64,000 bases of DNA from Candidatus Dormiibacterota bacterium (lineage in GTDB: Bacteria; Chloroflexota; Dormibacteria; Aeolococcales; Aeolococcaceae), in contig CAVPXI010000013.1 of the NCBI GenBank assembly GCA_963709585.1, positions 148,148 to 212,147 of the forward strand, written 5' to 3'. Of this stretch, positions 613 through 63,436 are shown piece after piece. Below the pieces are notes generated by a model. It saw only the letters and a program-made list of their open reading frames with translations. It had not been told where the DNA came from and searched no databases. Each line of letters begins with the position of its first letter. The stretch's first letter is position 1. A program made the position numbers and the translations under genes.

Positions 613-975
613 AAAACTGTAAGCGCTATGTATGCGCTGGACTGACACAATCTCTTGCGATGACCAGCGGCATCCGCCCTCAACCGTGGGGATGGATGCC
701 TTTTGCAGGAACAGCCATTATCCCTGGTTAGAGCACTACGCCACGTGGGCGCGCAGGCGCCCAAACACACTGTGCAACCTCTTGTTGCGAACGCAAGTCG
801 GGCGTCCGTCGGGGAGACGGACTCGAACCTGCGACCCCTGATCCCCCAGACCAGCGCTTTGCTCCCGATGCGGGCTGAGTTCGACTTAGAGTGCTTTCGT
901 CGGGGAGTGGTTGGAATGACGACGAGACCGTGGCTTTCGGAATCCATTTGAATCGCGTAGACATCAACAGGCGCG
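613..975. repeat. Family A junction 1: left arm (613-807), tRNA-Pro 3' core (808-854), right arm (to about 975)
   Basis: Starts AAAACTGTAAGCGCTATGTATGCGC. Core GTCGGGGAGACGGACTCGAACCTGCGACCCCTGATCCCCCAGACCAG matches the tRNA at 63362-63409 with small differences. Right arm TTGGAATGACGAC...GGAATCCATTTGAATCGCGTAG. Confidence 0.95.
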
Positions 976-1236
976 AGAAAGCAGTCAGCTTCCAACGCCG
1001 ATCCACCCCGAATCTACTCGGCAACGTTCCCTGCGACCAGGGCGATCCCTCCGCGCTGGAAAAGGCAACAAAGCCCGCCGCGACAAACTCTAACGCGCTC
1101 GTTGCGCGTTGTCTCGACCTCGGGAGGTGGCAGGCACTGCACCTAACGCGGTCCTAGCATCGACGATGCGCGTTGGCTGCGCCGACCCAACTCGCCCACA
1201 TGGCGAGGTGGGCGGCGGCGGAATGCGAGGAATGGA

Positions 1237-1416
1237 TCACTTGGGTTTGGCGCTGGAGCGACGCTTCCGTCGGTCCCGGATGACGTAGATCGGAGTACCG
1301 ATGATCGCGGCGAGCATCAGGATCGGGACGATGATCCACGGCCCGATGTGAAAGCTCTCCCCGCTATTTGCGGCTGTCGCGATCAGTTTGACGGCGATGA
1401 TCATTTGCTGATGCAT
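1237..1416 (-). CDS. Small single-pass membrane protein (59 aa), not in ORF track
   Basis: My translation MHQQMIIAVKLIATAANSGESFHIGPWIIVPILMLAAIIGTPIYVIRDRRKRRSSAKPK. AAGGAG RBS upstream; hydrophobic helix then basic tail; co-oriented with the ABC genes. Confidence 0.6.
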   Translation of the reverse strand: MHQQMIIAVKLIATAANSGESFHIGPWIIVPILMLAAIIGTPIYVIRDRRKRRSSAKPK

Positions 1417-1479
1417 GTTCCTAGCTCCTTGGGGGTGATTCTGATGGCTGGTTCGGGGCGCATTGACAGAGCGCCCAGG

Positions 1480-2268
1480 TCACGTGATGTCGCGCAAGAC
1501 CGTGGTACGCGCGGCAATGAGCGATATGACTGCGGCGATACCGGCGATGAGTGCCGCGGAAGCGATGACAGGCAGCGATGTGCCTCCTGCCAGCCCGTGG
1601 GCGGGACCGAAGGCGGCGTTGCCGAGTGTGGCCCCGGCCATGGTGGTGGCCGCGGTGTACGGGAGGTAGGGGCGAACCGACGTGTACAAGCCGCCGATGA
1701 GCGACTCGATCACGATGGCCCAGACGAAGATGCCGATGACGATGGCGAGTTGGGATCGGACGAGCGAGCCAAGGGCCACTCCGAGGACAGCGAGTAGGGC
1801 TGCGCCGAGCATGGCGCCGGCGACGTGGCCGACGAGTGTTCCCGTGCTCAGTGCGACGTGGTCGCCTTGCGCAGCCACGAAGATGAGACCGACGGTGGTG
1901 GCGATGATGCCGGCGAGAAGGCCAAAGAGAGAGCCGACGATTGCAGCGGCGATGGCTTTGGCTACCAGAACCCGAGGTCGTTTGGGGGTGGCGAGGTACG
2001 TGAGGGTGGCGCTGGAGTGGCGGAACTCGCCATTGGCCACGATCGCACCCAGCACAGCAGCCAGGAGCATGGCGAACCCGGTCACGGTGGTCACGCTTCG
2101 AAGACCTTCCGCAGTGGAGATCGGGGGTGCACCGCTGCCGGCGCTGCCAGCTTGGCCGCCTTCGAGTATTGCGAAGAACCCACTCAACGCAGCCGCCGCG
2201 GCGATCAGCCCGTAGGTGAGGCGCATGGTGCGCAGCTTGAGTAGTTCGGTGCGAACCAGCAGCGTCAT
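1480..2268 (-). CDS. ABC-2 type transporter permease
   Basis: Multiple TM helices, GEFRHSSATLTYLATPKR motif; overlaps the ATPase stop. Confidence 0.9.
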   Translation of the reverse strand: MTLLVRTELLKLRTMRLTYGLIAAAAALSGFFAILEGGQAGSAGSGAPPISTAEGLRSVTTVTGFAMLLAAVLGAIVANGEFRHSSATLTYLATPKRPRVLVAKAIAAAIVGSLFGLLAGIIATTVGLIFVAAQGDHVALSTGTLVGHVAGAMLGAALLAVLGVALGSLVRSQLAIVIGIFVWAIVIESLIGGLYTSVRPYLPYTAATTMAGATLGNAAFGPAHGLAGGTSLPVIASAALIAGIAAVISLIAARTTVLRDIT

Positions 2269-3173
2269 CGGGCGACCTCGCTTCGCTCGGCGTCCGCGGT
2301 AAGTCGGAGAAAAATGTCTTCGAGGTCTGCGGCGTCGGTGTTGGTTTCGAAGAGTGGGATTCCCTGTCCGGCGGCAAGGGTGCCGACCTGTTCCCCGCTT
2401 GCGCCGCTGACCTTAAGCCGGTCTGGCGCGATTATCTCGGCCGTGAAGCCCTTCGCCGAGAGCGCGGCAGCCAGGTCTTGGGCTCGCGGGGTGCGTACCC
2501 GGACGACGTTACTGGTTGTGGCGATAAGGTCAGCGAGCGTGGCCTGAATGACGAGCCGGCCCCGATCGAGGATCACCACGCTGTCGACGGTCTGGGCGAC
2601 CTCGGCGAGGAGGTGGCTGGATACAAGTATCGTGCGTCCCTCCGTCGCGAGTTGACGAAGGAATTGGCGGAGCCAGTGCACGCCTTCAGGGTCGAGCCCG
2701 TTGGCCGGCTCATCGAGGACGAGGATCTGCGGGTCGCAGAGCAATGCGGTGGCCAGGCCGAGTTGTTGGCGCATGCCGAGGGAGAACTGCCCAGCCCGGC
2801 GGTGAGCGGCGTGGGTGAGGCCGACGATGTCGAGCACCTCGTCGACCCGAGCGGGCGGGGCCCCGCCCACCAGGGCCTCGATTCGGAGATGGTTGCGGGC
2901 CGTGCGCCCCGGATAGGCGTTCGAGGATTCGAGGACGGCGCCGACGACACGCATGGGTGCAACCAAGTCACGGTACGGGCGGCCATTGATAGTGGCTGTT
3001 CCCTCGCTCGGCTCGATGAGGCCGAGGATCATCCGCAACGTGGTGGTCTTGCCGGCGCCATTGGGCCCGAGAAACCCTACGATGCTGCCGCGCTGCACCG
3101 TGAAGCTGACGTGGTCAACGGCGGTCAGGCTGGCGAAGCGCTTGGTCAGCCCTTCGACCTCGATCACCGCCAC
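2265..3173 (-). CDS. ABC transporter ATP-binding protein (BcrA-like)
   Basis: Walker A GPNGAGKTT, signature FSLGMRQ, Walker B ILVLDEP, H-loop SSH. Confidence 0.95.
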   Translation of the reverse strand: MAVIEVEGLTKRFASLTAVDHVSFTVQRGSIVGFLGPNGAGKTTTLRMILGLIEPSEGTATINGRPYRDLVAPMRVVGAVLESSNAYPGRTARNHLRIEALVGGAPPARVDEVLDIVGLTHAAHRRAGQFSLGMRQQLGLATALLCDPQILVLDEPANGLDPEGVHWLRQFLRQLATEGRTILVSSHLLAEVAQTVDSVVILDRGRLVIQATLADLIATTSNVVRVRTPRAQDLAAALSAKGFTAEIIAPDRLKVSGASGEQVGTLAAGQGIPLFETNTDAADLEDIFLRLTADAERSEVAR

Positions 3174-3384
3174 TATCGCGACCGGACTGGTGCAATAACG
3201 ATCGTGCGTTGGTTCATGCAGACGATGCTGACGGGCATTGCGCCGCGTGTCGTCGGGCCGGGAGCGGCTCGTCGGCTACGTCAGTGGGCGTAGCGACGAG
3301 GGCACAACTGCGCCCGGAACCGCAGCTCGCAAGCCGCTGCTAAGGCGATGCGCTGGGGGAAGCGGGTAGCTACGCTGGGCCTCG

Positions 3385-4579
3385 ATGGATCACGTGCATC
3401 GGGAAACCAGCGTCACCGAGGGAGGGACGGAACGACGACGGGGGTGGTTCGCGGACCTGAGTTGGCGTCGGTATCTGGCTCTTCCCGCCGTGCTATTAGT
3501 GGTGCAACTAGCCGGAGCAATCGCCACCACAGCCAGTCAGCAGGGCCAGCAGACTCCCCTCGGCGTCGCGGACTGGATCTTGCTGGTTGTAGGTCCGCTG
3601 GCGCTGACGTTCTGCCACCGCCACCCGGTTGCTGTGCTCTGGGTGACACTCGCGGCCACGCTCGCCCCCTCAGGGTCATGGTCTGCGAACCTAAGCCTCA
3701 TCGTCGCCTTTTTCATCGCGGCCACCGGCGGGCTCCGGCGAGCCGCCTGGCTGGTGATCGTGGCCGGCTATGTCTGCAGTGTTTGGCTGGCCCCGCTCGT
3801 CTTCGGCCATTCGATTGCGACACTGCAGTTCGCGCTTCTCCTGTTCGGGTGGCTGACCGTGCTGGTGATCGCGGCCGAAGTGGTCAGGATGCGCCGTGAG
3901 CGCAGTATCGAGACCGACGCGGCCCGCCGAACTCGCCTCAGAGCGGCGAGCAAGCGAGGAGCGACTGGTGATGGCCCGGGATCTCCACGACGTGATCGGC
4001 CACAACATCTCGCTCATCAACGTGCAAGCTGGAGTGGGCCTCGACCTGATGGACACTCACCCCGAACAGGCCCGCGTCGCCCTGGCGGCGATTAAGGCCT
4101 CCTCGAAAGACGCCCTCGACGAACTGCGCACCATGCTCGTCGCACTCCGCCAGACGGGTGAGGAAGCACCGCGCTCACCGACCCCAGGCCTCGCCCGACT
4201 CCCCGAGCTGATCAAGGTGACACGCGCCGCCGGTCTTTCAGTGGTCACCGAAGTTGCCGGGGACCCGATGCCGCTGCCCACCCCGGTCGACCTGGCGGCC
4301 TACCGAATCATCCAAGAATCGCTCACGAATGTCGCCCGCCATGCAGGACCAGCGACCGCAACCGTACGCCTCACGTATGAGCGCGACACGCTGGTCATCG
4401 AGATTGCGGACGACGGCGATACCCAACGAGTCAACGCAGTGCTGCCATTCGGTGCGGGCAGCGGGATCCCCGGCATGCGCGAGCGCGCGACGGCCCTCGG
4501 AGGTCGCCTCGACGCCGAGCCGCGTCCGGGTGGAGGGTTCGCCGTGACCGCCCGCCTACCGCTCGGAGTGCCGGGGTGA
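3385..4579 (+). CDS. Membrane sensor histidine kinase (HisKA_3), frameshift near 3925
   Basis: TM N-terminus in ORF 3385-4095; ERLVMARDLHDVIGH H-box and ESLTNVARHA/GSGIPGMRER ATPase boxes in ORF 3896-4579. Confidence 0.9.
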
Positions 4580-5241
4580 TCCGCGTGCTCCTCGCCGACG
4601 ACCAGGCGCTCGTCCGCGCCGGCTTCAAAGCCCTGCTCGATGCGCGGGACGACATCGAGGTCGTCGGCGAAGCCGCCAACGGCACTGAGGCGGTGTCGAT
4701 GTGCAAGACGCTGACGCCCGACGTGGTGCTCATGGACATCCGCATGCCTGAACTCGATGGCCTCGAAGCCACCCGCCAGATTGCCGACGACGCCCGCCTC
4801 TCAAGCGTGCGCATCATCATCCTCACCACCTTTGAACTCGACGAATATCTCTTCGACGCCCTACGTCACGGGGCGAGTGGATTCTTGGTCAAAGACACCG
4901 AGCCGGCTGATCTCGTAACTGCCGTGCGGGTTGTAGCCGCAGGGGACTCCCTGATCTCGCCCAACATGACTCGCCGCCTCGTCGCCGAGTACGCCGCCCG
5001 AGCCAAGGAGCCGCGGCCCCCCGATGAATTGGCGGCGCTCACACAGCGAGAACGTGAAGTCATGTGCCTCGTAGCGGGAGCGTTGACCAATGACGAGATT
5101 GCCGAGCGCCTCTACATCAGCCCAGCCACCGCGCGCACCCATGTCAGCCGGGCTATGAACAAGCTCGGCGCCCGGGACCGCGCACAACTCGTGGTGCTCG
5201 CCTACGAGACCGGGCTCGTTCGCCCAGGATGGCTCGCCTGA
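4576..5241 (+). CDS. NarL/LuxR-family response regulator
   Basis: Receiver (LADD, DIRMP) plus LuxR HTH LTQREREV; GTGA overlap with the kinase. Confidence 0.95.
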   Translation: MIRVLLADDQALVRAGFKALLDARDDIEVVGEAANGTEAVSMCKTLTPDVVLMDIRMPELDGLEATRQIADDARLSSVRIIILTTFELDEYLFDALRHGASGFLVKDTEPADLVTAVRVVAAGDSLISPNMTRRLVAEYAARAKEPRPPDELAALTQREREVMCLVAGALTNDEIAERLYISPATARTHVSRAMNKLGARDRAQLVVLAYETGLVRPGWLA

Positions 5242-5560
5242 GCGGGGCGCGTCTGAGAGCCGTGGACCACCAAGTGCGACTGCTACTAGTCAATCCGGTG
5301 AGCGCCCCCCTCCAGCGGGGTTACCCGCCGGGACCATCGAGCGAGTTCGCAGTCGTACATGGCGGCGAACACCTTGACGATGTCCGCAATTCGGAAGCGT
5401 TCACTCGGGTCGCTGCTGACGTGTTTCACTCGCCTTCTTCCGATCCGCCAGCCCCCCGTGGCTCGAAGCACTGGCCCGGTTCGATTCCGCTCACGCGCTC
5501 TTCGCACACGACCTCTCGGGCCTGGAGTTCGCAAACAACCACCCTCCCGACAAAACGGTA

Positions 5561-6043
5561 GTGCCCACACTCGGACGGTTCACCGCCGGGATTTCACAAT
5601 TCGCCAATAGGCGCGGCATTTACCTTGGGCGGCGGTCGACGAAGATCCATGTGGCTCTCTACCGGCGGACCGGCGGCAGGATCGGCGGCCATCTCCCCGG
5701 CTGGAATCAGGCCCGGATCCTCCTCCTTGACCACACGGGCGCTAAGACCGGCACGAGGCGGACGTCTCCGCTGATGTACCACGAGGATGACGTTACCGTC
5801 GCCGTCGTGGCTTCGAAGGGCGGCCAGCCCACGCACCCGGCGTGGTTCCACAACCTGAAAGCGAATCCGGACACGACGATCCAGATCGGCTCGGTGGTTC
5901 GGACTGTCCGCGCTCGCGTCGCGACCGACGAAGAGCGCGACCGCCTCTGGCCGAAGTTCGTAGCCTTCTACCCCGGCTACGACTTCTTCCAAAGCCATGC
6001 GAAGAGTCGGAAGATCCCGATCGTGATCCTCGACCCTCGTTAG
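5561..6043 (+). CDS. Deazaflavin (F420H2)-dependent nitroreductase family oxidoreductase
   Basis: LLDHTGAKTG...ASKGG...HPAWFHNLKANP...RKIPIVIL motifs. Confidence 0.9.
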   Translation: MPTLGRFTAGISQFANRRGIYLGRRSTKIHVALYRRTGGRIGGHLPGWNQARILLLDHTGAKTGTRRTSPLMYHEDDVTVAVVASKGGQPTHPAWFHNLKANPDTTIQIGSVVRTVRARVATDEERDRLWPKFVAFYPGYDFFQSHAKSRKIPIVILDPR

Positions 6044-6682
6044 CAGAAAGCCTCGGCCTTCCCCAGGCGCGCCGTCGACTTCCCTGAGAGTCGCCCTCTC
6101 AAGGAACAATCGCTCAGATCCTCGGGCCCGGGCGCCACCTCTCGTCCTCGCTTCATCGCTCCCCACTCACCTCCGCTTTCGTGCAACTGCTTGCGAATCT
6201 CTTACGGGCGTTCCGATGTCGAGCGTCGGAAGCACGTTGGAGTCTGACCGCGCAATCCTGTGCCCGAGTGCAGCGCCACCACCGGGGGACGGACCGCGAC
6301 TGCTGGTCTCGACATGAACCCCGACACGACCGCGTAGAACGACTGCGCGGTGTTCTCATCCAGCACCGAGCGATAGATGAACCCCCCGGAAAACTGGAGA
6401 CTCTGGGGTGTCCAAAGTTCAGCCACCGACAGCCGAGGGTCGAGCGGCGGAGCGCCGCCAGGGTGTCCGCCCGCACGGCTGCCCCACAGTCCGAGCCGTG
6501 GACCTCTCCCCGATCGATCGTGCTGAAGCAGCTGTCCATCTTCGAGAACTGTTCGAGCATCTCGCGGATGCCGCCGATTTCGTGCTGCCACGCGACCCAA
6601 GTCGATCTCATCGCCGGGAGCGTTGGCGATTGCTCCCCGCGCCGTCACGCCGGCCAGGTGGAGCGCATAGACGGGCGCGGCC

Positions 6683-7030
6683 AAAACTGTAAGCGCTATG
6701 TATGCGCTGGACTGCCACAATCTCTAGGCATGAGCAGCGGCATCCGGCCTCGACTGTGGGGAATGATGCCTTTTGCAGGAAAAGTCATCATTCCTGGTTA
6801 GAGCACTGCACAACGTGGGCGCGCAGGCGCCCAAACACACCGCGCAACCTCTCGTTGCGAACTCAAGTCGGGCGTCCGTCGGGGAGACAGGACTCGAACC
6901 TGCGACCCCTGGTCCCCCAGATTAGTCGTCATTTCCCGATGAGTGCTGAGTTCGATTTAGACTGGTTTTGTGGGAATTGGTTGGAATGACGACTAGAGCA
7001 CGTGTGATGGATTCTTTTGGAATCGCGTGC
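6683..7030. repeat. Family A junction 2: left arm (6683-6877), tRNA-Pro 3' core (6878-6925), right arm
   Basis: Closely similar to 613-975; core GTCGGGGAGACAGGACTCGAACCTGCGACCCCTGGTCCCCCAGATTAG. Confidence 0.95.
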
Positions 7031-7255
7031 ACACGCTCGGCGAATTGTGCCGCCTCCCTTCGCGGCTCTCCCCAACCGCTCTCCCGACTCTATCGACTTT
7101 GGGCATTCTGGTCTGCCACGGAGACCATCGGCAGCAACAGCGGCTGGCGTGCCCCGTGACGTGACCGGGCGCTCGTCTGGGAGGCGATCATGGTCCTCGA
7201 ATGGTTCCGCACTCATGGGCGGTGAACATCGTCGGGAGCGAACCCGATAAAGAGG

Positions 7256-8514
7256 TCAGCGGTCGCCCGACGGAGCCAGCTCGGAGAGGCGTCGATGAAG
7301 AAATCGGCGCTCGGCGTCTGTCGGCGCCAGCGCAAGCGCTTCGCGATATGCCGTTTGCGCCTCTGCGTAGCGCGTCAGGCGTCTGAACAAATCGGCACGC
7401 GTCGCGGGCAGCAGGTAGTAACCGGACAGGACTTCCGCTTGTTCCAGCTCGACAAGCAGCGCGAGTCCCGCCGCCGGCCCGTCGGCCATCGCGACAGCTA
7501 CGGCGCGGTTGAGCAGCACAACCGGCGTCGGTGCAATCTCGCTCAGGCGGTCATAGAGGGCCACGATCTCCCGCCAGTCCGTCTCGTCGGAGGTCCGAGC
7601 CTGGGCATGGCAGGCTGCGATCGCGGCCTGCAACTGGTACGGCCCCGGTCGTCGATGCCGCATGGCTCGATCGAGGAGCATGCACGCCTCGTCGATCCCG
7701 GCTCGATCCCAGAGCGCGCGATCTTGGTCCGCCAGCGTCACCAACTCGCCCTCGCCGTCGATGCGTGCCTGGCGCCTCGAAGTCCTGAAGGAGCAGGAGG
7801 CTGAGCAACCCAAGGGCCTCTGGCTCATCGGGCATAAGCTCCGCCAGCAACCGTCCCAGACGGATCGCCTCCGAGCAGAGTTCCTTGCGAATCAGCTCGT
7901 CGCCGGCGCTCGCGCCGTAGCCCTCGTTGAAAAGCGCGTAGATCACTGCCAGCACCGCGCGCAGCCGCTCCTGCAGATGGCGCGCATCCGGCACGCGATA
8001 TGGAATGCGTGCCTCGACAATCTTGCGCTTGGCGCGCGTCAACCGCTTCGCCATCGTCTCCTGAGGGAGCAGGAAGGCCCGTGCTATCTCGGGTGTCGTC
8101 AAACCCGCGAGTGTGCGAAGCGTCAGCGCCACCTGAGCCTCGACCGGGAGCGCTGGGTGACAGCACGTGAACATCAGCCGAAGCCGATCGTCCTCAATCC
8201 CGCTGTCGTTATCATCGTTGTCAGGCGCTGTGGGTCCCGTCACCCCAACCTCCCTCCGCTTGGCTTCGCCCACTGTTTCTCGTCGCAACCGGTCCAGCGC
8301 ACGGTTTCGCGCAGTCGTTTTCAACCAGGCTGCAGGAACTCGATGGAATCCCATCGCGTGGCCAGCGAGCGATCGCCCGCTCGAATGCATCTTGGGCGCA
8401 CTCTTCGGCCAGGTCCCAATTGCCGGTAACGTGGATGAGGTAGGCGACGACGCGACCCCAATTTGCCCGGAAGGCCTCGTCGACCGCCGCCTGCGCATCG
8501 GCTAAAGCGGCCAC
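7256..8514 (-). CDS. ECF42-type sigma factor with C-terminal DUF6596/TPR extension (frameshifts near 8340 and 7780)
   Basis: Pieces: AEECAQDAFERAIARWPRDGIP, DDRLRLMFTCCHPAL...FNEGY, LADQDRALWD...GPYQLQAAIAACHA. Directly downstream of a YCII/DGPF gene, as is typical for ECF42. Confidence 0.9.
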
Positions 8515-8843
8515 ACCGGTCGGACCTCAATCGTGCCGGAGCGGGCGCCCGGATTCCTAGAAGCGATCTCGATCGCCTCGTCGAGATCCGCACAGTCGAC
8601 GACGTAGAAGCCGGCGATCTGCTCCTTGGTCTCGGCAAAAGGACCGTCGGCGACCACGAGGCCGTCGTCGCGGACCCTCACCGTCGTCGAGAGCGTCGTC
8701 TCTCGGAGACGCTCGCGCGCGACCAAAACTCCTCGGGCCTCCATCTCGTCCTGGAAAGCCATGAACGCAGCGTATTCCGTCGCGACAGCCTCGTCGCTCC
8801 GTTCGGCGCTCTCGTCGACATAGACCAACATCGCATATCGCAT
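8502..8843 (-). CDS. YCII-related (DGPF) protein
   Basis: DGPFAETKEQIAGFY motif; start MRYAMLVY with AAGGAGGA RBS. Confidence 0.9.
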   Translation of the reverse strand: MRYAMLVYVDESAERSDEAVATEYAAFMAFQDEMEARGVLVARERLRETTLSTTVRVRDDGLVVADGPFAETKEQIAGFYVVDCADLDEAIEIASRNPGARSGTIEVRPVWPL

Positions 8844-8932
8844 CGGGTCCTCCTTCAAGTTGTTCGCTGGCCGCTGCCAAACAACCGCGAGCGGCCGGAG
8901 GCCCCAAGAGGCCCCCGGCGACCGCCGCGTCA

Positions 8933-9325
8933 TTACAGCGTGACGAAAAACACCACCTGCTCGTCGATGATCTCCTGGTTCTCGTCGAGTCGGTAGAGGC
9001 GAGCCCCCTGAAGCGTCATCTCAGGCGCATCAGGCCCGAGCTTCACGCGCGAGGTCACCTGCAACAGCGCCCGCGTCTGATCACCGACCGCGGAGTTCAC
9101 CGTGGTCGCGCCCGGCAGCACGGCCTGACCGAACTGCATCAGACCTTGCATGTAGTCCTCGATCCCCGTGGTGTCGACCTTCGGCGCTTCGGGATCGACA
9201 CTCGTGACGGAAACGTGGACATCGGCTGCAAGCGCGGTGCGCGCCAAGTCGTAGTCGTGCTTGCCCCACGCGGCAACGTGAGCCCGAGCGACCTCAATGG
9301 CGGTTGCTTCCTGATTCGACGACAT
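8933..9325 (-). CDS. SnoaL/NTF2-like family protein
   Basis: VARAHVAAWGKHDYDLARTALAADV pattern; RBS AAGGAG. Confidence 0.75.
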   Translation of the reverse strand: MSSNQEATAIEVARAHVAAWGKHDYDLARTALAADVHVSVTSVDPEAPKVDTTGIEDYMQGLMQFGQAVLPGATTVNSAVGDQTRALLQVTSRVKLGPDAPEMTLQGARLYRLDENQEIIDEQVVFFVTL

Positions 9326-11454: not shown

Positions 11455-11466
11455 CCAACCGAGTTC

Positions 11467-56439: not shown

Positions 56440-56523
56440 CTCACCACCTCCGTGCGCGTCCCCCGGGTTCCCCATCCGGAGGCCGCGTGTTTCTCCGACC
56501 GCCTCCACGGCTTCTCTTCAGTC

Positions 56524-56556
56524 AGGCGTTCATTCGGAGTGAACGAATGTTCAGTC
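56524..56556. promoter_or_regulatory. Conserved 33-bp upstream motif, copy 1
   Basis: AGGCGTTCATTCGGAGTGAACGAATGTTCAGTC; 31/33 identical to 61932-61964. Confidence 0.7.
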
Positions 56557-59148
56557 GCTGACACCGCTGCCGGTGGACACGCGCCAGGCGATGGCCACGC
56601 GCGGATCCGGTGTATACGAGCAGACCGTACCGGTGCGGATCGTCGCCTCGAGGTGCGCACCCAGGTTGGCGTCAGTCGCGGCAATGCGGCGCATCGCCGA
56701 CCTGACCGCGCGCACGACGTTCAATCGGGCTCGCTCTGCGATCGACCCGGCGTGGCGCGATCGCCCTCCGAGACCGAGTGCTCGGCTCAGCTCGTGCGTG
56801 ATGAAGTCCAACTCCTCGCGGAGGAGACCGACCTCATCCGCAGTGCCCCACGCTTCGGCGGTCTCAATCCCCACTCGCAATTCGGCGACGCGGGCGCGGT
56901 ATGCCCGGCGTGCTTCGGCATCGAGCAGCTCGCCTGCATCGCTCGATGCGATCGCACGGGCGGTCTGATCGCCACCGGGTGCGCCCAGCCGCTCGAGATC
57001 CACAGCCGCATGAGGGCGTCCCGGGTCGGCAAGCAGGTGCGCCAGTACCCGGAGCCCCTTGCTGTCGCGAAGCCGGGTGATGCGCCCCGCGAAGGTGATC
57101 GCCCAGTACTCGCCCTCCCGCTCGAATCGGGCGTCCTCATCGGCGGGAATCGCCGCCTCGACGACGCTCCGATGGACACGGCGCCGCCGTATCGGCACGG
57201 TCCCGGTGTGACGCACCGCTTGCCCGAGCGCCTGATCGATGGTGAGCTCCTCGCCTTCAGCATGTGCTGCGAGAAATGCCGCCTCACCAAGGTGTCCTCG
57301 TAGCGTTGTGGCCCATTGCTCGTAGCGCTTCCGCTCGTCACCGAGCATGCGGAATCCCAGTGCACGCTCCTCGGCCTCGACCGCGCCCCAGACCCTGGCC
57401 GAAAGGGGATATGCCCCCAGTCCAGCCAGGGCGCTCCCGATGCCTGCAACACACAGGATCCGGCTCCGGCGTTCGGTTGCCCCGGTGATCTCCAAACTCG
57501 CCTGGTAGTACGCGACAGCGCCCCGATAATCGCCGCGATCCAACGCCAGGTCGCCGAGGCTGTGCAGCGAATGTCGGACCAGGCCCGGAAACGACGAGCG
57601 CGCAAGCCGTGTCGCATCCGTGAACAGCCGCTCACTCTCATCGTACGAGCCCTGATCACGAGCGACGCCGGCGAGCAGGTGGAGTGTCGCCGCTCGTCCC
57701 GCGTTGTCAGCGATCGCTTCGAAGAATCCCAGAGCGTCGCGATGCAGGCCGATTGCCATTTCCAGATCTGCACGCTCGCTCGAGATCCGGCCGAGGCGGT
57801 TAAGCAGGAAGGCCACCCGCTGCGTGTTTCCGAGCTCGCGATGGAGGGCGAGGCTCTGTGTGTAGTACCGCTCCGCCTGGTCAGGGTCGGTTACCACGAA
57901 ATAGTCGAGAAGGCCCGCCGCTTCCAGTGCAGCCGCGCGCAGCGAGGGGCTGACCGACGCGTCTTCGAGCGCCGCCAACTCCAGCCACAAACAGGCATCG
58001 TGGCGGTGGCCCCGGTCGATCCAGAACCTGGACAGCGCGACGCCGAGTCGTAAGCAGAGATCAGTTTCGCTGTTCGTCTGCGTCCAGGCCAGCGCAGCCC
58101 GCATGTTCGCCAGGTCCTCCTCGAGTTCTCCGAACGTCTCCGGATTGGACGGCCAGCTCTGCGCGCCGGCCATCGTCTCGGCAGCCTGCGCGAAATACGC
58201 ACCATGACGCCGACCGAGCTCATGCTGCTCGGTCACGGTCAGCCGCTCGGCGGCAAACTCCTGCACGGTCTCCAGCAGCGCGAAGCGATCGTCCCTCCCC
58301 CGATGAACCGAACTCTTGTCGACGAGCGATGAGATCGTAGGGAGATCTGAAGCACATACCTCCTCCGCCGCCATGAGATCGAAGCTGGCCGGAAATATCG
58401 CGAGGCGTTTGAACAGCTCGCGCTCCCCCGTCGACAGCAGGTCCTCGCTCCACGCAATCGTTGCTCTGAGGGTCTGATGACGCGCAGGCATGTCGCGCGC
58501 CCCGCCCGTGAGCATCGGCAATCGACGGTTCAACCGCGTCAGCAAACCGCTGAGGGTCAGCACATTCACCCGGGTTGCGGCCAGCTCGAGGGCGAGCGGG
58601 AGACGGTCGAGGCGGCTGCAGATCGCCTCGACCGTCTCCTCTTCGACGAACGCGGGATCGACGGCACGAGCTCGCTCGACGAAGAGGGCGACCGCATCGG
58701 CGGGGCTGAGCGGCCGCACTGTGAAGCGCTGTTCAGCGGTCAGGCGGATCGGCTCGCGGCTGGTAACGAGGATGTGGACCGAGGGGCAGGCGGCGAGCAC
58801 TGACGCGAGTAAAGGCGCGACTGCAGCCACAACCTGCTCGACGTTGTCCAGCACCAGGAGAAGGCTTTGCTTCGCAAGGTGCTCAGCGAGCGAGCCGTTG
58901 GCCCCCACCGATCGCGCGATTGTCTGCTCCACCAGGCTAGGGTCGCGAACGGACGCCAGGGGCACCCAGCAGACACCGGCCGGGAACCGCTCGGCGGCGT
59001 CGACGGCGATCTGGATTGCGAGCCGAGTTTTACCAGAGCCGCCGGCGCCAAGCAGGGTCACCAGTTGATGCGTACACAACAACGCACCTGCGACCCGCAG
59101 CTCATCCACCCGGCCGATAAACCGGCTCTGCTGGACTGGAAGATTCAT
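56551..59148 (-). CDS. STAND-type ATPase/TPR regulator with C-terminal putative DNA-binding domain
   Basis: RFIGR, GAGGSGKTRLA, LLVLDNVEQV, TSRE, LDRLPLALELAA, TPR helices; tail FEREGEYWAITF...KGLRVLAHLL...ERARLNV...IRTG. Confidence 0.88.
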   Translation of the reverse strand: MNLPVQQSRFIGRVDELRVAGALLCTHQLVTLLGAGGSGKTRLAIQIAVDAAERFPAGVCWVPLASVRDPSLVEQTIARSVGANGSLAEHLAKQSLLLVLDNVEQVVAAVAPLLASVLAACPSVHILVTSREPIRLTAEQRFTVRPLSPADAVALFVERARAVDPAFVEEETVEAICSRLDRLPLALELAATRVNVLTLSGLLTRLNRRLPMLTGGARDMPARHQTLRATIAWSEDLLSTGERELFKRLAIFPASFDLMAAEEVCASDLPTISSLVDKSSVHRGRDDRFALLETVQEFAAERLTVTEQHELGRRHGAYFAQAAETMAGAQSWPSNPETFGELEEDLANMRAALAWTQTNSETDLCLRLGVALSRFWIDRGHRHDACLWLELAALEDASVSPSLRAAALEAAGLLDYFVVTDPDQAERYYTQSLALHRELGNTQRVAFLLNRLGRISSERADLEMAIGLHRDALGFFEAIADNAGRAATLHLLAGVARDQGSYDESERLFTDATRLARSSFPGLVRHSLHSLGDLALDRGDYRGAVAYYQASLEITGATERRSRILCVAGIGSALAGLGAYPLSARVWGAVEAEERALGFRMLGDERKRYEQWATTLRGHLGEAAFLAAHAEGEELTIDQALGQAVRHTGTVPIRRRRVHRSVVEAAIPADEDARFEREGEYWAITFAGRITRLRDSKGLRVLAHLLADPGRPHAAVDLERLGAPGGDQTARAIASSDAGELLDAEARRAYRARVAELRVGIETAEAWGTADEVGLLREELDFITHELSRALGLGGRSRHAGSIAERARLNVVRAVRSAMRRIAATDANLGAHLEATIRTGTVCSYTPDPRVAIAWRVSTGSGVSD

Positions 59149-59401
59149 CGCGGCAACCCTCTGCTGAGGGGCACACTACACCGGATGCGGGTCTGATGCG
59201 TGACGGGGGTCGCCAAGCGAAGGGTTCGGGTTCGCTATCGCGCGGACCAGTTGGCTGGCCGGTGGTGGCAATGTCCACCACGGTTTGTCCAGGATGGTTT
59301 CCCGCGGAGCCCCCGGGCGACGAGACGCTGTCCAGCAGGACCGGAAACAACGAGTGCGCTTAGGGCGCGTTCCCACCCCGCGCGCACGTGAGCCTCGCTT
59401 C

Positions 59402-61930
59402 CTAGCGTGCGCGGAAGTACGAGACTTCGCCGTCGGTGTTGTCCGACGCGTAGACGGTTTGTGTCTCCTGGTTGACCCCGAGTCCGCTCGACCACCCGCC
59501 CGTAGGTATGCTCACCGGAGTTTGAGGACATCCCGAGGTGATGCTCGCGTTGCACGTCGCCCCGTTGAACACATCAACGTCGGAGTCGATGATTGAACTG
59601 ACGTAGACGGTGTCGGTGTTCTGATCAACAGCGACGGCAAATGGTTCGCCGCCCGTGATCATAGTTGCCGGTGTCTGGCCGCAGCCGGAGGTCACGCTGG
59701 CGTTGCAGGAAGCGCCATCGATCACCGACACAGTTGTCGACGGGGCGCCCGTGAAGAAGCCATCAGCGACGTAGACGGTATGGGTGGCTTGGTCTACGGT
59801 GATTGGCCCGGGACCGATACCCGCCGCAACTGTCGGCGGGCTCTGGCCGCAGCCAGAGTGGTTGGTCGAATCGCATGTGCCCGCGTTCACCACTGAAACC
59901 GTATTGTCGTTACTGTTCGCAACGTACACAGTGTTGGTAGTCTCGTCGACTGCAAGGTCGGCGGGCCCGCTACCGACCGAGACCGTCGGTGGGGTTTCGC
60001 CGCAACCGGAGTGGTCGGTCGCGTTGCAGGTGATGCCGTTTATCACTGAGACGGCGTTGATGCCGATATCCGCTACGTAGATCGTGTCCGTGACCTCGTT
60101 GACGGCCAGATCGAATGGGCCGCCGCCGACTGCGACGGTGGCCGGTGTCTGACCGCAGCCGGAGTGGTTTGTGGCGTCGCAGGTCGCAGCGTTGATGACC
60201 GAGACGGTGTTCACCCCTAAGTTCGCCACGTATACCGTGTGGGTGAGCTGGTCGACTGCCACAGCCTGTGGAAAGCTGCCTGTGGCGACCGTGGGCCAGG
60301 TGCCGCCGCAGGCAAGCCTCACAGCAGCATTGCAGGTCGCCCAGTTAATGACCGACAGATCATCGTCGTTCTGGCTCGTGACGTAGATGGTGTCCGTCGC
60401 GCCGTCTACGGCAACTCCGGCCGGTCCGCTGCCGACGGTGCTCGTCGGTGCCGCATGCCGGCATCCGGCCTGGTAAGTCAAGGTGCAGGTCGCGCCGTCG
60501 AGCACAGAAACGGTGTTCTCATCCTGATTCGGCACGTACACGGTATCAGTGGCCGGATCAACGGCGAGAGTGCCTGGGGAGAAGCCGACCGCGACGGTCG
60601 GCGGATGCTGGTTGCAGCCGGCAGTGTCGGCCGCATTGCAGATGCTTCCGTCGATCACCGAGACGGTGCTGTCCTCCTGATTGGGCACGAAGATGCTGTT
60701 GGTGATCGGGTCGACTGCCATGCCTATGGGCTGACTCCCAACGGTGACGGCCACCGGCGTCGTGCGGCATCCCCCGGTGTGTGTGGCATTACAGGTCGCG
60801 TCGTCGAGGACATCGACAGAGCCAAGGCTCGTAGGAGCAGCTCCCGCCGGGCCGCCAGCTACGTAGACGGTGTGTGTTGAGGGGTCAACACCAACCCATC
60901 CAGGGTTGATGCCTCCGTGCGCGGCGAGGGGGGATCGCCTACAGCCGCTCGTGGTGTCGGCATTGCACGTAGCGGCGTCGATCATCGCGACTGACCCTGG
61001 CACAACCAGACCAAAGGTGACTGCCACATATAGCGATTGAGTCGCTTCGTCAACGGCCAGACCGGTCGGCGCCCCGGGGAGAGCCACCGTGGACACGTGC
61101 CCGCATCCAATCTGCACCATGGCATTGCACGTCGTAGCGTCGACGACGGAGACGGCGTTGTCACCGGCATCCGCAACATATACGCTATGATTCGCAGTGT
61201 CTACACCAGCATAATCTGATCCGTAGCCGACGATGACAGTTGGCACGTGAGAGCAGCCGGAAGCGGTCATCGCATTGCACGTGGCAGCGTCGATCATCGA
61301 GACGGTGTCCGTCCCCGTGTCTGTCACGTAGACCGTACTAGTCGCTGTGTCGAGGACATCGGAAACCGGCCCAACACCCACCGCCACCGTCGGGGCGACC
61401 TGGTTGCAACCTGAAGTATTTCCTGCCCGGCAATGCACAGTGTCGACCACGGACACCGTGTTGTCATTGCCATTGGTCACATAGGCGGTGTGCGTGGCAT
61501 CGTCGACAGCCACGTCGGTAGGGTTTCCACCGACGTTGACCGTCGGCGCAATCGGATTCCTGAATGCGCTCGCGACAGTGCCGAGCTCAGCGCTCACCGA
61601 ACGCCCCCGCGGAGCGAGAGCCTCCGCGTGGTCGATTGCCAGTCGCGCCTCCAGCGACGATCGAAGAAGAGCGGCGCTGCTGGTTTTCGTATGGGTCGAT
61701 ACTCCTTGTGCATCTGCCTGTGTTGCAGGTCCGAAGGTGGGAAGGATGATGCCCACGCCGGCTACCACCAGGAGATGGCGCCACTTGAGGCGTCGCGCCC
61801 CACCCCCTGGCAGATTCCAGGCAATTGACCCAAAGAGCCTCGGTCGCCGAGTTATGTCTACCCTCCCGCAAGGCCGGGTACCAGAGGTGCCGGTTGCGAG
61901 AGCAACGCTCGCCTCGCCGGCGTCACTCAT
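59402..61930 (-). CDS. Secreted YncE/YVTN-type beta-propeller with C-x7-C loops (second paralogue)
   Basis: 13 repeats of ID.ATCNA....GC within YVTN-like blades; hydrophobic leader LLVVAGVGIIL. Start uncertain. Confidence 0.85.
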   Translation of the reverse strand: MSDAGEASVALATGTSGTRPCGRVDITRRPRLFGSIAWNLPGGGARRLKWRHLLVVAGVGIILPTFGPATQADAQGVSTHTKTSSAALLRSSLEARLAIDHAEALAPRGRSVSAELGTVASAFRNPIAPTVNVGGNPTDVAVDDATHTAYVTNGNDNTVSVVDTVHCRAGNTSGCNQVAPTVAVGVGPVSDVLDTATSTVYVTDTGTDTVSMIDAATCNAMTASGCSHVPTVIVGYGSDYAGVDTANHSVYVADAGDNAVSVVDATTCNAMVQIGCGHVSTVALPGAPTGLAVDEATQSLYVAVTFGLVVPGSVAMIDAATCNADTTSGCRRSPLAAHGGINPGWVGVDPSTHTVYVAGGPAGAAPTSLGSVDVLDDATCNATHTGGCRTTPVAVTVGSQPIGMAVDPITNSIFVPNQEDSTVSVIDGSICNAADTAGCNQHPPTVAVGFSPGTLAVDPATDTVYVPNQDENTVSVLDGATCTLTYQAGCRHAAPTSTVGSGPAGVAVDGATDTIYVTSQNDDDLSVINWATCNAAVRLACGGTWPTVATGSFPQAVAVDQLTHTVYVANLGVNTVSVINAATCDATNHSGCGQTPATVAVGGGPFDLAVNEVTDTIYVADIGINAVSVINGITCNATDHSGCGETPPTVSVGSGPADLAVDETTNTVYVANSNDNTVSVVNAGTCDSTNHSGCGQSPPTVAAGIGPGPITVDQATHTVYVADGFFTGAPSTTVSVIDGASCNASVTSGCGQTPATMITGGEPFAVAVDQNTDTVYVSSIIDSDVDVFNGATCNASITSGCPQTPVSIPTGGWSSGLGVNQETQTVYASDNTDGEVSYFRAR

Positions 61931-61931
61931 G

Positions 61932-61964
61932 AGGCGTTCAATCGGGGTGAACGAATGTTCAGTC
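61932..61964. promoter_or_regulatory. Conserved 33-bp upstream motif, copy 2
   Basis: AGGCGTTCAATCGGGGTGAACGAATGTTCAGTC. Confidence 0.7.
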
Positions 61965-62017
61965 ACCGCCGCATTCCCGATCGCGGCGCCTCGCTGAAGT
62001 GGAGAGAGCGTAGGAGT

Positions 62018-62674
62018 ATGAGTGAGCCCGAGGCCGGTGGGCATCCCTCGGCCTGCACAGTGCGGCCGTGTCGCTCGTCCCACACGAGCCTTCCGGGGCG
62101 GCGCTCGGCGAGACGGAACGTCATGGCACTCCTCGGCCACCTCGCCAGCGACGTTCAACATGTCGGCAGCACCGCGGTAGTGGGCTTGGACGCCAAGCCC
62201 ATCCTCGACATCGCGGTCGCGCTCGACCCCGATCACAGCAGCGGTACCAACGAGATCGTGCGACGCATGGAGGCTGGTGGTTACGAGTACCAAGGAGACC
62301 AAGGGCCTGACGGCGGACTGCTGTTCGTGAGGGCCACCGGCGATGTCCGCACCGTGCACGTGCACATGGTGCCCGCCGATGACCCCGGGTGGACCTCCTA
62401 CATCCGCTTCCGCGACTACCTGCGCGCCACCCCCCAGCGCCGAGGCGACTACCAGCAGCTCGAGCGCCAGCTCGCCACCCGGTACGCAGCAGACCGTGAG
62501 GCGTACACCGAAGCCAAGACGGCGTTCGTTCTCGAAACGCTCCGACTCGCCGAGAAGCAGACGACCGCCGGCGAGTCACCTCCTCGAACGGCGGCCCATC
62601 CCATCTTTGAATTCGCGCGTGCACGATATCCGCCTATAGCGGCTCACAGCGGAACCTCTACCGTGGTCGAATAG
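62018..62674 (+). CDS. GrpB-family nucleotidyltransferase-fold protein
   Basis: VQHVGSTAVVGLDAKPILDI, HVHM, FRDYLR, YTEAKTAFV. Confidence 0.85.
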   Translation: MSEPEAGGHPSACTVRPCRSSHTSLPGRRSARRNVMALLGHLASDVQHVGSTAVVGLDAKPILDIAVALDPDHSSGTNEIVRRMEAGGYEYQGDQGPDGGLLFVRATGDVRTVHVHMVPADDPGWTSYIRFRDYLRATPQRRGDYQQLERQLATRYAADREAYTEAKTAFVLETLRLAEKQTTAGESPPRTAAHPIFEFARARYPPIAAHSGTSTVVE

Positions 62675-62709
62675 CGCAACAGCGTCGATGACCCGCTGCC
62701 GTCGACAAT

Positions 62710-62930
62710 GGTCCGACGGGGGTTTAGCCACCGTCCACTGGGGCCGAGAAGAGCGTCAGCCTGTTCGGGTCCCCACCCGCCTGGCTTGTACGCGATGGCA
62801 CGACTATGCCGCTTCACCGATGGGATCAACCACTGTCGACGCCGCCTCGACTGCGGCCCCGCTGGTGAAGATGGTGCCATCCCCTGCCATCGCTTCCCGA
62901 GGAGGCGATCGTAGGGGATTCGGCACCACG
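62710..62930 (-). pseudogene. zwf: 3' remnant of glucose-6-phosphate dehydrogenase
   Basis: Broken frames YDRLLG / EAMAGDGTIFT..AVEAA..VVDP / AYKPGGWGPEQADALL...WLNP. Confidence 0.65.
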
Positions 62931-63168
62931 CTGCTCCTCCATCGCCATGGTCGACCACCTCTAGGGCAACCCGGAAGCGCTGTTCCACCATGTCCAGCTC
63001 CACAAGCACGAAGCTGGTCCCTCCGATGGCGCTCAGTCCTTGCGGACGAGCGGACTGGAGGGAGGCCGGCTGTGTCAAGCATCAGGCGGACGCACCGTAG
63101 ACCGTCAAGCATCCCTTGGACCCGCGGTGTCAAGTATCTGCCGGACTTATACACGGACTTCTAGTACG

Positions 63169-63361
63169 AAAACTGTAAGCGTTATGTATGCACTTGCCTG
63201 CCACACTCTCTTGCTATGAGCAGCGGCATCCGGCCTCAACCGTGGGGATTGATGCCTTTTGCAGGAAAAGCAATCATTCCTGGTTAGACAACTACACCCC
63301 GTGGCGCGCAGGCGCCCATCGCACCTCGCCACCTCTCCCGCGCGAAGTCAAATTGCGCGCC
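63169..63361. repeat. Family A left arm directly downstream of the intact tRNA-Pro
   Basis: AAAACTGTAAGCGTTATGTATGCAC...GGCATCCGGCCTCAACCGTGGGGATTGATGCCTTTT; matches arms at 613, 6683 and 13847. Confidence 0.95.
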
Positions 63362-63362
63362 G

Positions 63363-63436
63363 TCGGGGAGACAGGACTCGAACCTGCGACCCCTGGTCCC
63401 CCAGACCAGTACTCTAACCATCTGAGCTACTCCCCG
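63363..63436 (-). tRNA. tRNA-Pro (GGG), CCA not encoded
   Basis: CGGGGAG TA GCTC AGATGGTTA GAGT A CTGGT CTGGGGG ACCAG GGGTC GCAGG TTCGAGT CCTGT CTCCCCG A folds as a full cloverleaf. Confidence 0.97.

Follow-up and report, generated by a model that had tools for sequence, protein, structure and literature searches.

Elements of the pSAM2 type in actinomycetes integrate in tRNA-Pro, share with it an identity segment that runs from the anticodon loop to the 3′ end, and are autonomous, with an integrase of their own; we know of no integrase-less arrays of such elements. The ssrA islands of Dehalococcoides carry their own recombinase and are arranged in tandem, and the tandems described in streptococci consist of one or few elements each. 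Site-specific integration at the tmRNA gene is described as common in the genus Dehalococcoides in the available part of one account (PMC3146451). The formation of cis-mobilizable elements (CIMEs) by tandem accretion with an ICE is already a named phenomenon, and the accessible portion of PMC5704250 gives both the definition and the accretion model, citing Pavlovic 2004 and Bellanger 2011.

The array described here belongs to an uncultured soil bacterium (Candidatus Dormibacterota) and joins modules that are unrelated in gene content. The window, the whole 64,000-nt stretch that was analysed, is the right end of contig C13 and the last 64 kb of a 199.7-kb array in which 16 units of 1.8-41 kb stand head to tail at one tRNA-Pro(GGG), the sole tRNA gene of the window (Table 1). 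A second der-tRNA-Pro locus, on contig C14, holds at least five further units. The array reported in an earlier note on this DNA is real and considerably larger than was thought. Sequence comparison bears out the 3′ part of the tRNA as a repeat at 808, 6878, 14041 and 50651, in the same orientation, with core-to-core spacings of 6071, 7163, 36609 and 12712 nt. An ungapped search with a 44-nt core at up to three mismatches returned three places (6879, 50651 and 63363) against 0.00 expected from 100 shuffles, and did not return the copies at 808 and 14041 because each has a single-base indel relative to the tRNA. Sixteen co-oriented partial copies accompany the tRNA on C13, and four partial copies and one remnant accompany that of C14; an assembly-wide repeat search gave 25 occurrences, all on the plus strand (17 on C13, six on C14 and two weak, core-only matches on C15). 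The IS110-family element at the left edge of the window lies inside a 3.6-kb unit to the left, is no part of the att system and has copies on C7 and C14 that are 99.8-99.9% identical. In der, at the other edge, there is a frame overlap at 63596-63635; contigs of four runs have an additional T at the same place, behind 63640.

Table 1. Features of the window, with the strand and the basis of each assignment.
Feature	Position	Strand	Basis
IS110-family insertion sequence, 3′ end	1..270	+	DEDD_Tnp_IS110/Transposase_20 matches for C13:147132-148391
Junction J1: arm A 612-807, core 808-854 (one base missing), right arm 855-975	612..975	+	
Unit 1 cargo: ABC transporter, two-component system, F420H2-dependent quinone reductase	976..6681		Pfam
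Junction J2: arm A 6682-6877, core 6878-6924, right arm 6925-7045	6682..7045	+	
Unit 2 cargo: sigma/YCII/SnoaL module, MFS transporter	7046..13845		Pfam
Junction J3: arm A 13846-14040, core 14041-14088 (one extra C), right arm 14089-14211	13846..14211	+	
Unit 3 cargo (36.6 kb): redox enzymes, sigma factors, ABC transporter, Bil-like defence genes	14212..50479		Pfam; PADLOC
Junction J4: arm B about 50480-50650, core 50651-50697, right arm 50698-50817	50480..50817	+	
Unit 4 cargo: beta-helix protein, two large repeat proteins, STAND NTPase-TPR	50818..62943		Pfam
Unit 4 left arm A (63168-63361), abutting the tRNA, plus extension of about 220 nt	62944..63361	+	
Intact tRNA-Pro(GGG), attachment site	63362..63436	-	ARAGORN; Rfam tRNA, 63.1 bits
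Repeated core, the tRNA 3′ part	about 63362-63409	-	within tRNA-Pro(GGG)
der (EngA GTPase) 3′ part, chromosomal flank; contig ends here	63489..64000	-	KH_dom-like match

Every internal junction consists of the tRNA 3′ part, from the anticodon stem-loop to the 3′ end, followed by a right arm of about 110 nt, and the order arm, core, arm is attP-like, as had been proposed. The identity block extends from the 3′ end of the tRNA through the anticodon stem-loop; just past the loop, on the right-arm side, the tRNA reads GACCAG where 11 of the 20 internal junctions read GACTAG, a C/T difference. All four partial copies of the window are followed by the right arm, here 110-120 nt long, and the left arm of about 195 nt stands at 612, 6682, 13846 and 63168, where the last copy abuts the intact tRNA. 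The earlier picture of units as two arms plus cargo is right for the right arm, which is universal (20/20 internal junctions), and too simple for the left arm, which is not uniform: among 22 sites it is type A (195 nt) in 11, type B in five, partly A in one and unique in five. The arm before the core at 50651 does differ, as noted, yet it is no one-off but a member of family B, which also stands at C13:56414, 111213 and 134824 and beside the tRNA of C14. Across the 20 internal junctions, conservation is 0.92 in the core, 0.70 in the right arm and 0.29 in the DNA past it, and arm A (n=9) is conserved at 0.83 against 0.27 in the DNA past it. Ten copies of arm A in this assembly start at one identical base, and 15 matches from 10 other genomes of the genus, with 10 more in genome G000, begin at query position 1-3. 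The extension at 62944-63167 is common to some A-type units only and matches C13:90174-90321, C14:49980-50180 and other genomes too. The right arm carries GGAATGACGAC at 104-108 nt from the core start in 20/20 cases, one with a mismatch, and holds three to four phased TGGAAT repeats, which are candidate protein-binding arm sites; GGAAT on one strand occurs 2.65 times per arm against 0.06 expected, clustered about 45, 55, 81 and 92 nt in. The outer end of arm A carries CTGTAAGCGCTATGTA.

The units hold from 1 to more than 30 predicted genes each (called by a codon-usage script), on both strands and with TetR, LuxR and sigma regulators. Unit 1 has no long counterpart in 41 other genomes of the genus at E <= 1e-150. 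Within unit 2, positions 9758-12957 are 97% identical to C14:8724-11923, and positions 7255-9430 match C13:120388-122563 in inverted orientation at 93%. The right 12 kb of unit 3 are 89-97% identical to the tRNA-proximal unit of C14, and the first 3 kb or so of unit 4 are 93-94% identical to the eighth unit from the tRNA in the genome G019. That the units are discrete insertions at the core is supported by a comparison of the two loci: C13:193532-198845 and C14:66361-71676 are 97% identical up to a point within the core, past which C14, with the end of unit 3 joined to the tRNA, runs into the tRNA and C13 runs into the right arm of unit 4, which stands between. Content and order of the cassettes differ across genomes, as was expected, for example between C13 and the closed genome G019, and junction copies range from two matches (G051, closed) to 21 (G043). 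The cassette blocks that genomes share are more alike (90-97% identity) than the flanking der genes of those genomes (about 85%).

Profile, Pfam and tblastn searches found no recognisable recombinase, relaxase or phage gene in the units, in agreement with the earlier reading. In six frames, PF00589 gave 11 matches in the genome and none on C13, with one on C14 that is 250 kb away and beside tRNA-Gly; PF00239 gave a single match, on C4 and so outside the arrays, and PF07508 none in the genome. Among 213 C13 proteins (212 of the 218 predicted and one extra ORF), IS110 transposases were the only recombinase-type Pfam matches. No replication module or integrase of their own was found in the units. 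An integrase beyond the left edge of the window, suggested earlier as something to look for, is not present on C13, and the assembly has no ortholog of the integrase described below, the best tblastn match (30% identity) being the integrase of the tRNA-Gly island.

In relatives, a single integrase family does occupy this tRNA-Pro core. The protein is Xer-like, 331 aa long, and has orthologs of at least 87% identity in 8 of 42 genomes of the genus; none is present in the other 34. The distance from the intact tRNA-Pro(GGG) to the start of the gene is 124 nt in six of the eight; in G019 the start follows an internal core by 107 nt, and in G007 a 29-nt core piece is all that remains near the gene. 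PF00589 over residues 143-317 is the only Pfam family found; Pfam recognised no arm-binding domain, and the first 60 or so residues matched no family. Its best solved relatives are XerC-like 4a8e (3e-14), XerA 5hxy and XerD 1a0p. It falls far below every cut-off of the Xer equivalog models and scores 36.8 bits on the integron-integrase model TIGR02249, whose cut-off is 265. The integrase-bearing units of G008 and G019 end in the right arm of the array. In G008 the integrase heads a conjugative-type element of about 90 kb with genes for an adjacent HTH protein of 59 aa, a TraA-like helicase, ParA- and ParB-like proteins, SSB, ArdC and RadC, together with VirB4/TraG-like (TraG/AAA_10 P-loop), VirB11-like (T2SSE) and VirD4-like (T4SS-DNA_transf) genes. 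The helicase part matches TIGR02768 at 1.8e-98, under the cut-off, and no relaxase catalytic domain was identified in this element. The conjugative element has the arm A motif CTGTAAGCGCTATGTA at two places, of which one precedes its secretion-type gene cluster by about 300 nt.

We propose that the array arose by tandem accretion of integrase-less CIMEs of an ICE family through site-specific integration at tRNA-Pro(GGG), which we consider the probable explanation. The ICE family of this Dormibacterota genus would enter tRNA-Pro(GGG) via its Xer-like tyrosine integrase, with the crossover in the anticodon loop or 3′ of it. The units of the window would be relatives of this family without the integrase, each retaining the core, the shared right arm and one of a few left arms. 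Newcomers would insert at the copy of the site that carries the intact tRNA and push older units outward. Whenever the cell also holds an element with the integrase, recombination would become possible between any two junctions of like orientation, and single units or blocks could then be excised, reshuffled or taken along with the ICE. Every unit is bounded by att sites of the ICE/IME family, and the profile, Pfam and tblastn searches of the arrays returned no integration or transfer genes. The array as assembled has no known means of moving; the model would have the genus integrase act on its junctions in trans, and the units may still move. The public contigs, which are short and stop at the arms, showed neither circular excised forms nor empty sites nor variation inside one population. 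Recognition of arms A and B by this integrase is not assured, because they have only two short blocks in common with the arm of the integrase-bearing elements.

The alternative that survives best, though we think it unlikely, is that complete elements each arrived and lost integrase and backbone, leaving arms alike by descent and an inert array. In G019 a right-arm fragment is followed immediately by the remains of an integrase (residues 8-52, 70% identity), and the integrase unit of that genome, about 7.6 kb core to core and otherwise cargo, could be an intermediate form. Degenerate junction pieces, namely a core fragment of 21 nt at C13:65606, a core cut short at C14:13460 and right-arm-like stretches at C13:111036 and 134656, and the lower coding density (0.77, against 0.88-0.89 on C14 and C15) speak for decay. 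Tycheposon islands are described as formed in this way in the available part of their report (10.1101/2020.12.28.424599). Against such a history, tblastn with the genus integrase gave no remnant in this assembly's 20 units, and 94 proteins of the G008 element gave no conjugative backbone remnant in either array. Furthermore, arm A has its one shared start and contains no integrase coding sequence across many copies and genomes, and at least ten independent deletions would not have had one common end point. Its distal half is also kept better than its proximal half (0.87 against 0.79), and the internal cores are as alike as they are although they stand outside any working tRNA.

It is also conceivable, but improbable, that the junctions of about 300-360 nt act as portable homology for RecA-type swaps after uptake or conjugation, with no site-specific recombinase at work today. 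Co-oriented repeats of 70-92% identity are adequate substrates for such exchange, arrays are present and variable in genomes without the integrase, and the units are mosaics whose identity shifts between 79 and 97% along their length. This leaves unexplained why the repeat is the 3′ part of a tRNA ending at the anticodon stem, why the integrase stands at a fixed distance from the core in seven of eight genomes, and why the TGGAAT repeats are phased; homology exchange may supplement the integrase mechanism without replacing it. That cassettes of several strains were chained via the repeat during assembly or binning, and that no cell holds a 200-kb array, is very hard to believe: although public short-read runs gave contigs that invariably end at the arms, reads may be too short for units of 37-41 kb and the C13 der is nearer to that of other species (96-97%) than to that of C14 (85%), the same junctions delimit 11 units, spread over 153 kb, in the closed single-contig chromosome of G019, single contigs of the few-contig assemblies G003, G020 and G006 carry several junctions of like orientation within 6-15 kb, and wrong binning would alter the owner genome of the array, not its structure. 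Because of these der identities (97% with G049, only 85% with C14 of the same bin), C13 may well belong to another population than the other contigs of the bin.

Site-specific accretion of CIMEs, the reading we prefer, leaves room for a stronger version, possible but rather doubtful in our judgement, in which the integrase-less units are self-propagating multi-gene cassettes with a dedicated arm A that is wired to the integrase of the element and perhaps to its regulation, and are excised, shuffled and exported in trans. If true, the tRNA-Pro locus would be a tRNA-anchored, integron-like reservoir that makes up some 6% of the genome of a member of an uncultured phylum. The term integron-like, used in the earlier note, holds as an analogy only, as the defining integron features that were tested are not found here. 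Integrons and the array both have co-oriented cassettes by one fixed site, strain-variable content and an Xer-related tyrosine recombinase. However, no integrase is fixed beside the array, that of the genus being on a mobile element; the junction is a tRNA segment with long arms and not an attC; and the cassettes are multi-gene, on both strands and with their own regulators, whereas those of integrons are mostly single promoterless genes.

The Tycheposon islands of Prochlorococcus, in the part of their description available (10.1101/2020.12.28.424599), resemble the array in being variable and tRNA-adjacent, in growing as newcomers drive older elements inward, and in holding partial tRNAs, degraded elements and mostly cargo DNA. 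In the same part (10.1101/2020.12.28.424599) Tycheposons have their own integrase and often a replication module, neither of which the array units have, and conserved two-sided arms on integrase-less units, present in the array, do not figure; the helper here also has conjugation-type genes. The Dehalococcoides islands, so far as the account drawn on above describes them, share with the array an insertion at a small RNA gene and differ in the target, ssrA against tRNA-Pro. Finally, the streptococcal CIMEs (ICESt1/ICESt3-type), as covered by the accessible portion of PMC5704250, agree with the array in having no integration or transfer genes, in keeping attL/attR-type ends, in forming a tandem with an ICE of the same att specificity or occupying its site, and in one proposed origin by site-specific accretion and deletion. 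The array differs from them in that the helper integrase is missing from most array-carrying genomes here, in its site, the tRNA anticodon loop, in its extent of 16 units and 200 kb, a scale that is unusual for CIME accretion, and in a dedicated 195-nt left arm, free of integrase sequence, that is kept across species.

The junctions of the tandem array are marked by a repeated 3′ part of tRNA-Pro(GGG), here called the core, and the array extends far beyond the window along C13, a contig of 212,147 bp whose right end (148148-212147) is the window. Partial, co-oriented tRNA copies at window 808, 6878, 14041 and 50651 had been reported in the earlier note, and a repeat finder together with a five-way alignment places all four there; a left arm of ~195 nt stands before each of the first three and, at 63168-63361, directly adjoins the intact tRNA as well, and a right arm of 110-120 nt follows each of the four, both as described in that note. 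The array that it drew over window 613..63436 is therefore real, and its extent is what has to be revised, as profile and core-motif searches give 16 units of 1.8 to 41.2 kb on C13, 199.7 kb in total. An ungapped search with 44 nt of the core returns three places in the window and none in shuffled sequence, missing the copies at 808 and 14041 because of a single-base indel in each. Identity with the tRNA starts at its 3′ end, takes in the entire anticodon stem-loop and goes no further. In the 3.52-Mb source assembly (G000) the junction repeat occurs 25 times, always on the + strand, and tRNA-Pro(GGG) has 20 extra partial copies, against at most three for any other tRNA gene (49 tRNA genes in the assembly).

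Positions of the tRNA genes, cores and insertion sequence of the array
Feature	Position	Strand	Remarks
tRNA-Pro(GGG)	window 63362-63436	minus	sole tRNA gene in the window (ARAGORN, Rfam)
der, 3′ end	right of tRNA-Pro(GGG) in the window		
C13 cores	11778, 15232, 56414, 59415, 66139, 90541, 111213, 112993, 122588, 129447, 134824, 145381, 148967, 155038, 162201, 198810		profile and core-motif searches
C13 tRNA-Pro(GGG)	211522		profile and core-motif searches
Second der-tRNA-Pro(GGG) locus, contig C14	cores 17976, 50403, 52371, 56577; tRNA 71641; truncated core 13460		
IS110-family IS	window 1-270 (C13:146948-148417)		intact 419-aa transposase; fills most of a 3.6-kb unit

The array makes up ~6% of the 3.5-Mb bin, with the proviso that C13 itself possibly comes from a related population. 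Its der fragment is 96-97% identical to the der of two other species and 85% identical to that on C14 of the same bin, and C13 probably represents a related population binned with G000. The der gene reads in two overlapping frames at window 63596-63640, and contigs of all four public short-read runs have an extra T behind 63640; this frame break is probably a 1-nt assembly error and not the mark of a pseudogene. Other partial tRNA copies were also seen in the bin. Another proline tRNA, tRNA-Pro(TGG) on C15 (33420-40732), is accompanied by two partial copies of its 3′ part in the same orientation, at spacings of 2.1 and 5.2 kb; C15 has no PF00589 match, and this site is a further tandem without an integrase, though a small one. 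Inside the array, beside junctions, lie fragments of the tRNA-Gly(CCC) 3′ end in opposite orientation (C13:66433-66468 and 110903-110936), which may be att remnants of a different family of elements that came in as cargo.

The right arm is present at all 20 internal junctions, and the left side is more varied. Arm A, which is 193-196 nt long and sharply bounded at a single outer point, stands at 11 of 22 sites when the C13 tRNA and the degenerate 11778 copy are counted; arm B (150-170 nt) stands at five, the window junction at 50651 and the C14 tRNA among them; C14:17976 has the innermost ~50 nt of arm A only, and five further sites are unique. Mean pairwise identity over the internal junctions is 0.92 in the core, 0.70 in the right arm and 0.29 just past it, and that of arm A is 0.83 (0.87 in the distal half, 0.79 in the proximal half), with 0.27 past its boundary. 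As the internal cores belong to no working tRNA, another reason is needed for their conservation. Within the right arm, GGAATGACGAC keeps a constant distance from the core in 20/20 copies, and GGAAT occurs on one strand 2.65 times per arm, where 0.06 is expected, its copies clustering ~45, 55, 81 and 92 nt into the arm and so roughly in helical phase. The right-arm motif is also found inverted in arm A and direct in arm B, and we regard the repeats of both sides as candidate arm-type protein-binding sites.

At the leftmost C13 junction (11778) the left side is arm-A-like at 73% identity, and a LuxR/Crp block lies past the last junction in C13 and in the closed chromosome G019 alike. The array may end at this block, in which case arm A may have a relationship with the sequence that originally flanked the tRNA. 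A motif at the outer end of arm A, CTGTAAGCGCTATGTA, occurs twice within the integrase-bearing element of the related genome G008, in one case ~300 nt upstream of the cluster of secretion-type genes in that element; a 14-nt search word for it (at most one mismatch) hits, in the whole of G000, the arm A copies and one site on contig C8 within a related small element. A search of the G008 element for sequence antisense to arm A yields just the two 15-16-nt motif matches. Several other roles for the arms were considered and rejected. A structured RNA is disfavoured by an RNAalifold covariation term of +0.47 and compensatory change in 3/50 pairs (26 distinct arm A copies from several genomes), and an Rfam search matches the tRNA alone, with no family for arm A. 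A 23-codon ORF in arm A has non-synonymous changes and a 1-nt deletion among its copies in an alignment judged by eye, and over window 500-14400 a consensus scan gives no promoter-like site and six terminator-like sites, none at a matching place across the three junctions. A ~300-nt element distinct from arm A lies at window 62639-62941, with 74-86% identity to copies in more than 10 genus genomes and to C13:91570-91849.

The units between the cores behave as discrete blocks. C13:193532-198845 and C14:66361-71676 match at 97% identity up to a point within the core, past which C14 continues into the tRNA and C13 into the right arm of unit 4, the unit adjoining the intact tRNA; unit 4 was thus inserted precisely at this site. 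Its first part shares 93-94% identity with a G019 unit that is eighth from the tRNA among other neighbours, and further blocks common to C13 and G019 are permuted in order, so that content and order differ between genomes as the earlier note had anticipated. No long counterpart of unit 1, the first complete unit of the window from the left, turns up in the 41 other genus genomes, and the number of junction matches ranges from 2 (G051, closed) to 21 (G043) per genome. Blocks in common are 90-97% identical, compared with ~85% for der of the same genomes, which suggests horizontal spread of the units as judged against one 564-nt der marker. The sigma/YCII/SnoaL module of unit 2 (window 7255-9430) is an inverted 93% copy of C13:120388-122563, where the module reaches the core at C13:122588 directly with no left arm between, and this suggests either an inversion or a deletion ending at the junction. 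Contigs of the four public runs, compared with window 44001-64000, all break at arms, and two of the runs have a joint that leads from 53987 back to 50522, which fits a shorter unit 4 variant as in G019, not a circle.

The claim that the units hold no recognisable recombinase is upheld by PF00589, PF00239 and PF07508 searches and by Pfam scans of the arrays. A six-frame PF00589 search of G000 gives 11 matches, none of them on C13 and one on C14, 250 kb off the array beside tRNA-Gly; PF00239 has a single match in G000, on C4, and PF07508 none. Among 212 of the 218 C13 proteins predicted with our own codon-usage script (the six shortest omitted) and one extra ORF, the only mobility genes found by Pfam are IS110 transposases, one intact and one fragmentary. 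Copies of this IS on C7 and C14 are 99.8-99.9% identical, and by this likeness it has probably been active recently. Its bridge-type transposase was rejected as the recombinase of the array, with the IS lying 340 nt outside arm A and the intact copy present in one unit only. The cargo is metabolic and regulatory, with ABC and MFS transporters, two-component systems, sigma factors, F420-dependent and other redox enzymes, a hydrogenase/PFOR cluster and a Bil-like candidate defence set. The latter (window 20555-23925) consists of a BilD-like protein (PADLOC 1.5e-20), a JAB-domain protein and a 116-aa protein, beside a fused HTH and M78 peptidase regulator of CapH/CapP or RmrA type. In unit 4 (window 54136-62365) a STAND NTPase-TPR protein lies between two large proteins, both made of repeats of ~153 nt (51 aa) and one of them with NHL/lactonase beta-propeller matches, and unit 3 contains five copies of an 80-240 nt intergenic repeat (GGGCGGCGGGAGACGGGGGTCTCCCGC ... 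GAATTGATTTCTCTTATCGG; window 17534-17653, 27569-27805, 30096-30230, 32451-32589 and 36768-37005).

An integrase is found in relatives. All 24 sampled genomes of the genus have the junction repeat, and outside the genus, in an out-group including the unpublished G027 and G036, the tRNA core alone is covered among the matches listed. In G019, 11 units occupy 153 kb next to the tRNA, and one of them has as its first gene, 107 nt past the core, a tyrosine recombinase of 331 aa. Orthologs of at least 87% identity occur in 8/42 genus genomes, and in six of these the intact tRNA-Pro(GGG) is followed by the gene at a distance of 124 nt; at the G007 locus the core is reduced to a 29-nt piece. The protein has PF00589 alone by Pfam and scores far below the cut-offs of all curated Xer and integron-integrase models, its nearest solved structures are XerC-like, XerA and XerD, and we regard it as Xer-like; TTGATG-17-TATCAT before the gene reads as a putative promoter. 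In G008 it heads an element ~90 kb long that reaches to the next junction with the same right arm and encodes an HTH protein, a TraA-like helicase, ParA-/ParB-like proteins, SSB, ArdC and RadC together with VirB4/TraG-like, VirB11-like and VirD4-like secretion-type proteins. We take this element to be an ICE, one in which no relaxase catalytic domain is recognised. The integrase-side arm has only two blocks in common with arms A and B, ~18 nt beside the tRNA end and TTTTGC(A/T)GGAAA..CATCA. Secretion-type genes related to those of this element also lie at C18:11353-22181.

The integrase that the earlier note looked for beyond the left edge or elsewhere is not borne out in G000, which has no ortholog; the best tblastn match, 30% identical, is the integrase that a different small element carries next to tRNA-Gly(GCC) on C8. 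As C13 is probably foreign to the bin, this absence applies to the contigs at hand and not to the owner of C13. As to host XerC/D as the enzyme, the two best G000 matches to the integrase, on C8 and C7, adjoin tRNA-Gly(GCC) and tRNA-Gln with partial copies nearby and are therefore island integrases, not Xer. The C8 element (82766-91987) has two partial tRNA copies nearby and is related to the G008 element, with an integrase 29-30% identical to that of tRNA-Pro and a TraA-like helicase 66% identical to its G008 counterpart.

The junctions also constrain the crossover point. The 5′ side of the anticodon loop always reads GACCAG in the intact tRNA and GACTAG in 11/20 internal junctions. In the usual integration scheme the sequence on that side of the crossover derives from the incoming element, and the exchange point must therefore lie within the anticodon loop or 3′ of it. 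This placement agrees with the class of tRNA sites, entered at the anticodon loop, that Williams reportedly described in 2002.

One could also read the units as the remains of once-complete elements that later lost integrase and backbone, and an integrase remnant in G019, the degenerate junction pieces and the low coding density would agree with such decay. We consider it unlikely, as the boundary of arm A is single and common across many copies and species, the distal part of this arm is better conserved than the proximal, the internal cores are well kept and no remnant of an integrase or backbone is seen in 20 units.

We found no printed work on this Dormibacterota tRNA-Pro locus in the literature on Dormibacterota or Dormibacter integrases, ICEs and islands. 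To our knowledge, tandem accretion of elements that lack an integrase has been described chiefly in a small number of cultured Firmicutes, usually with one or few units; here a single tRNA gene anchors 16 units over 200 kb, and the junction architecture is conserved throughout a genus whose phylum, from soil and peat, is uncultured. Should the element-borne integrase still mobilise the units, accessory genes would enter these organisms mainly through this locus. The 331-aa integrase, ~50-nt core and ~110-nt arm make a compact recombination pair available. The closest described system for the array units is the cis-mobilizable element (CIME), and two of the features that define a CIME are found in them, namely bounding att sites of an ICE family and a lack of integration and transfer genes. 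CIMEs are described as lying in tandem with an ICE through site-specific accretion (PMC5704250). The "integron-like" array of the earlier note holds as an analogy only, and were the units still mobilised they would provide a natural case of large multi-gene cassettes handled as an integron handles small ones.
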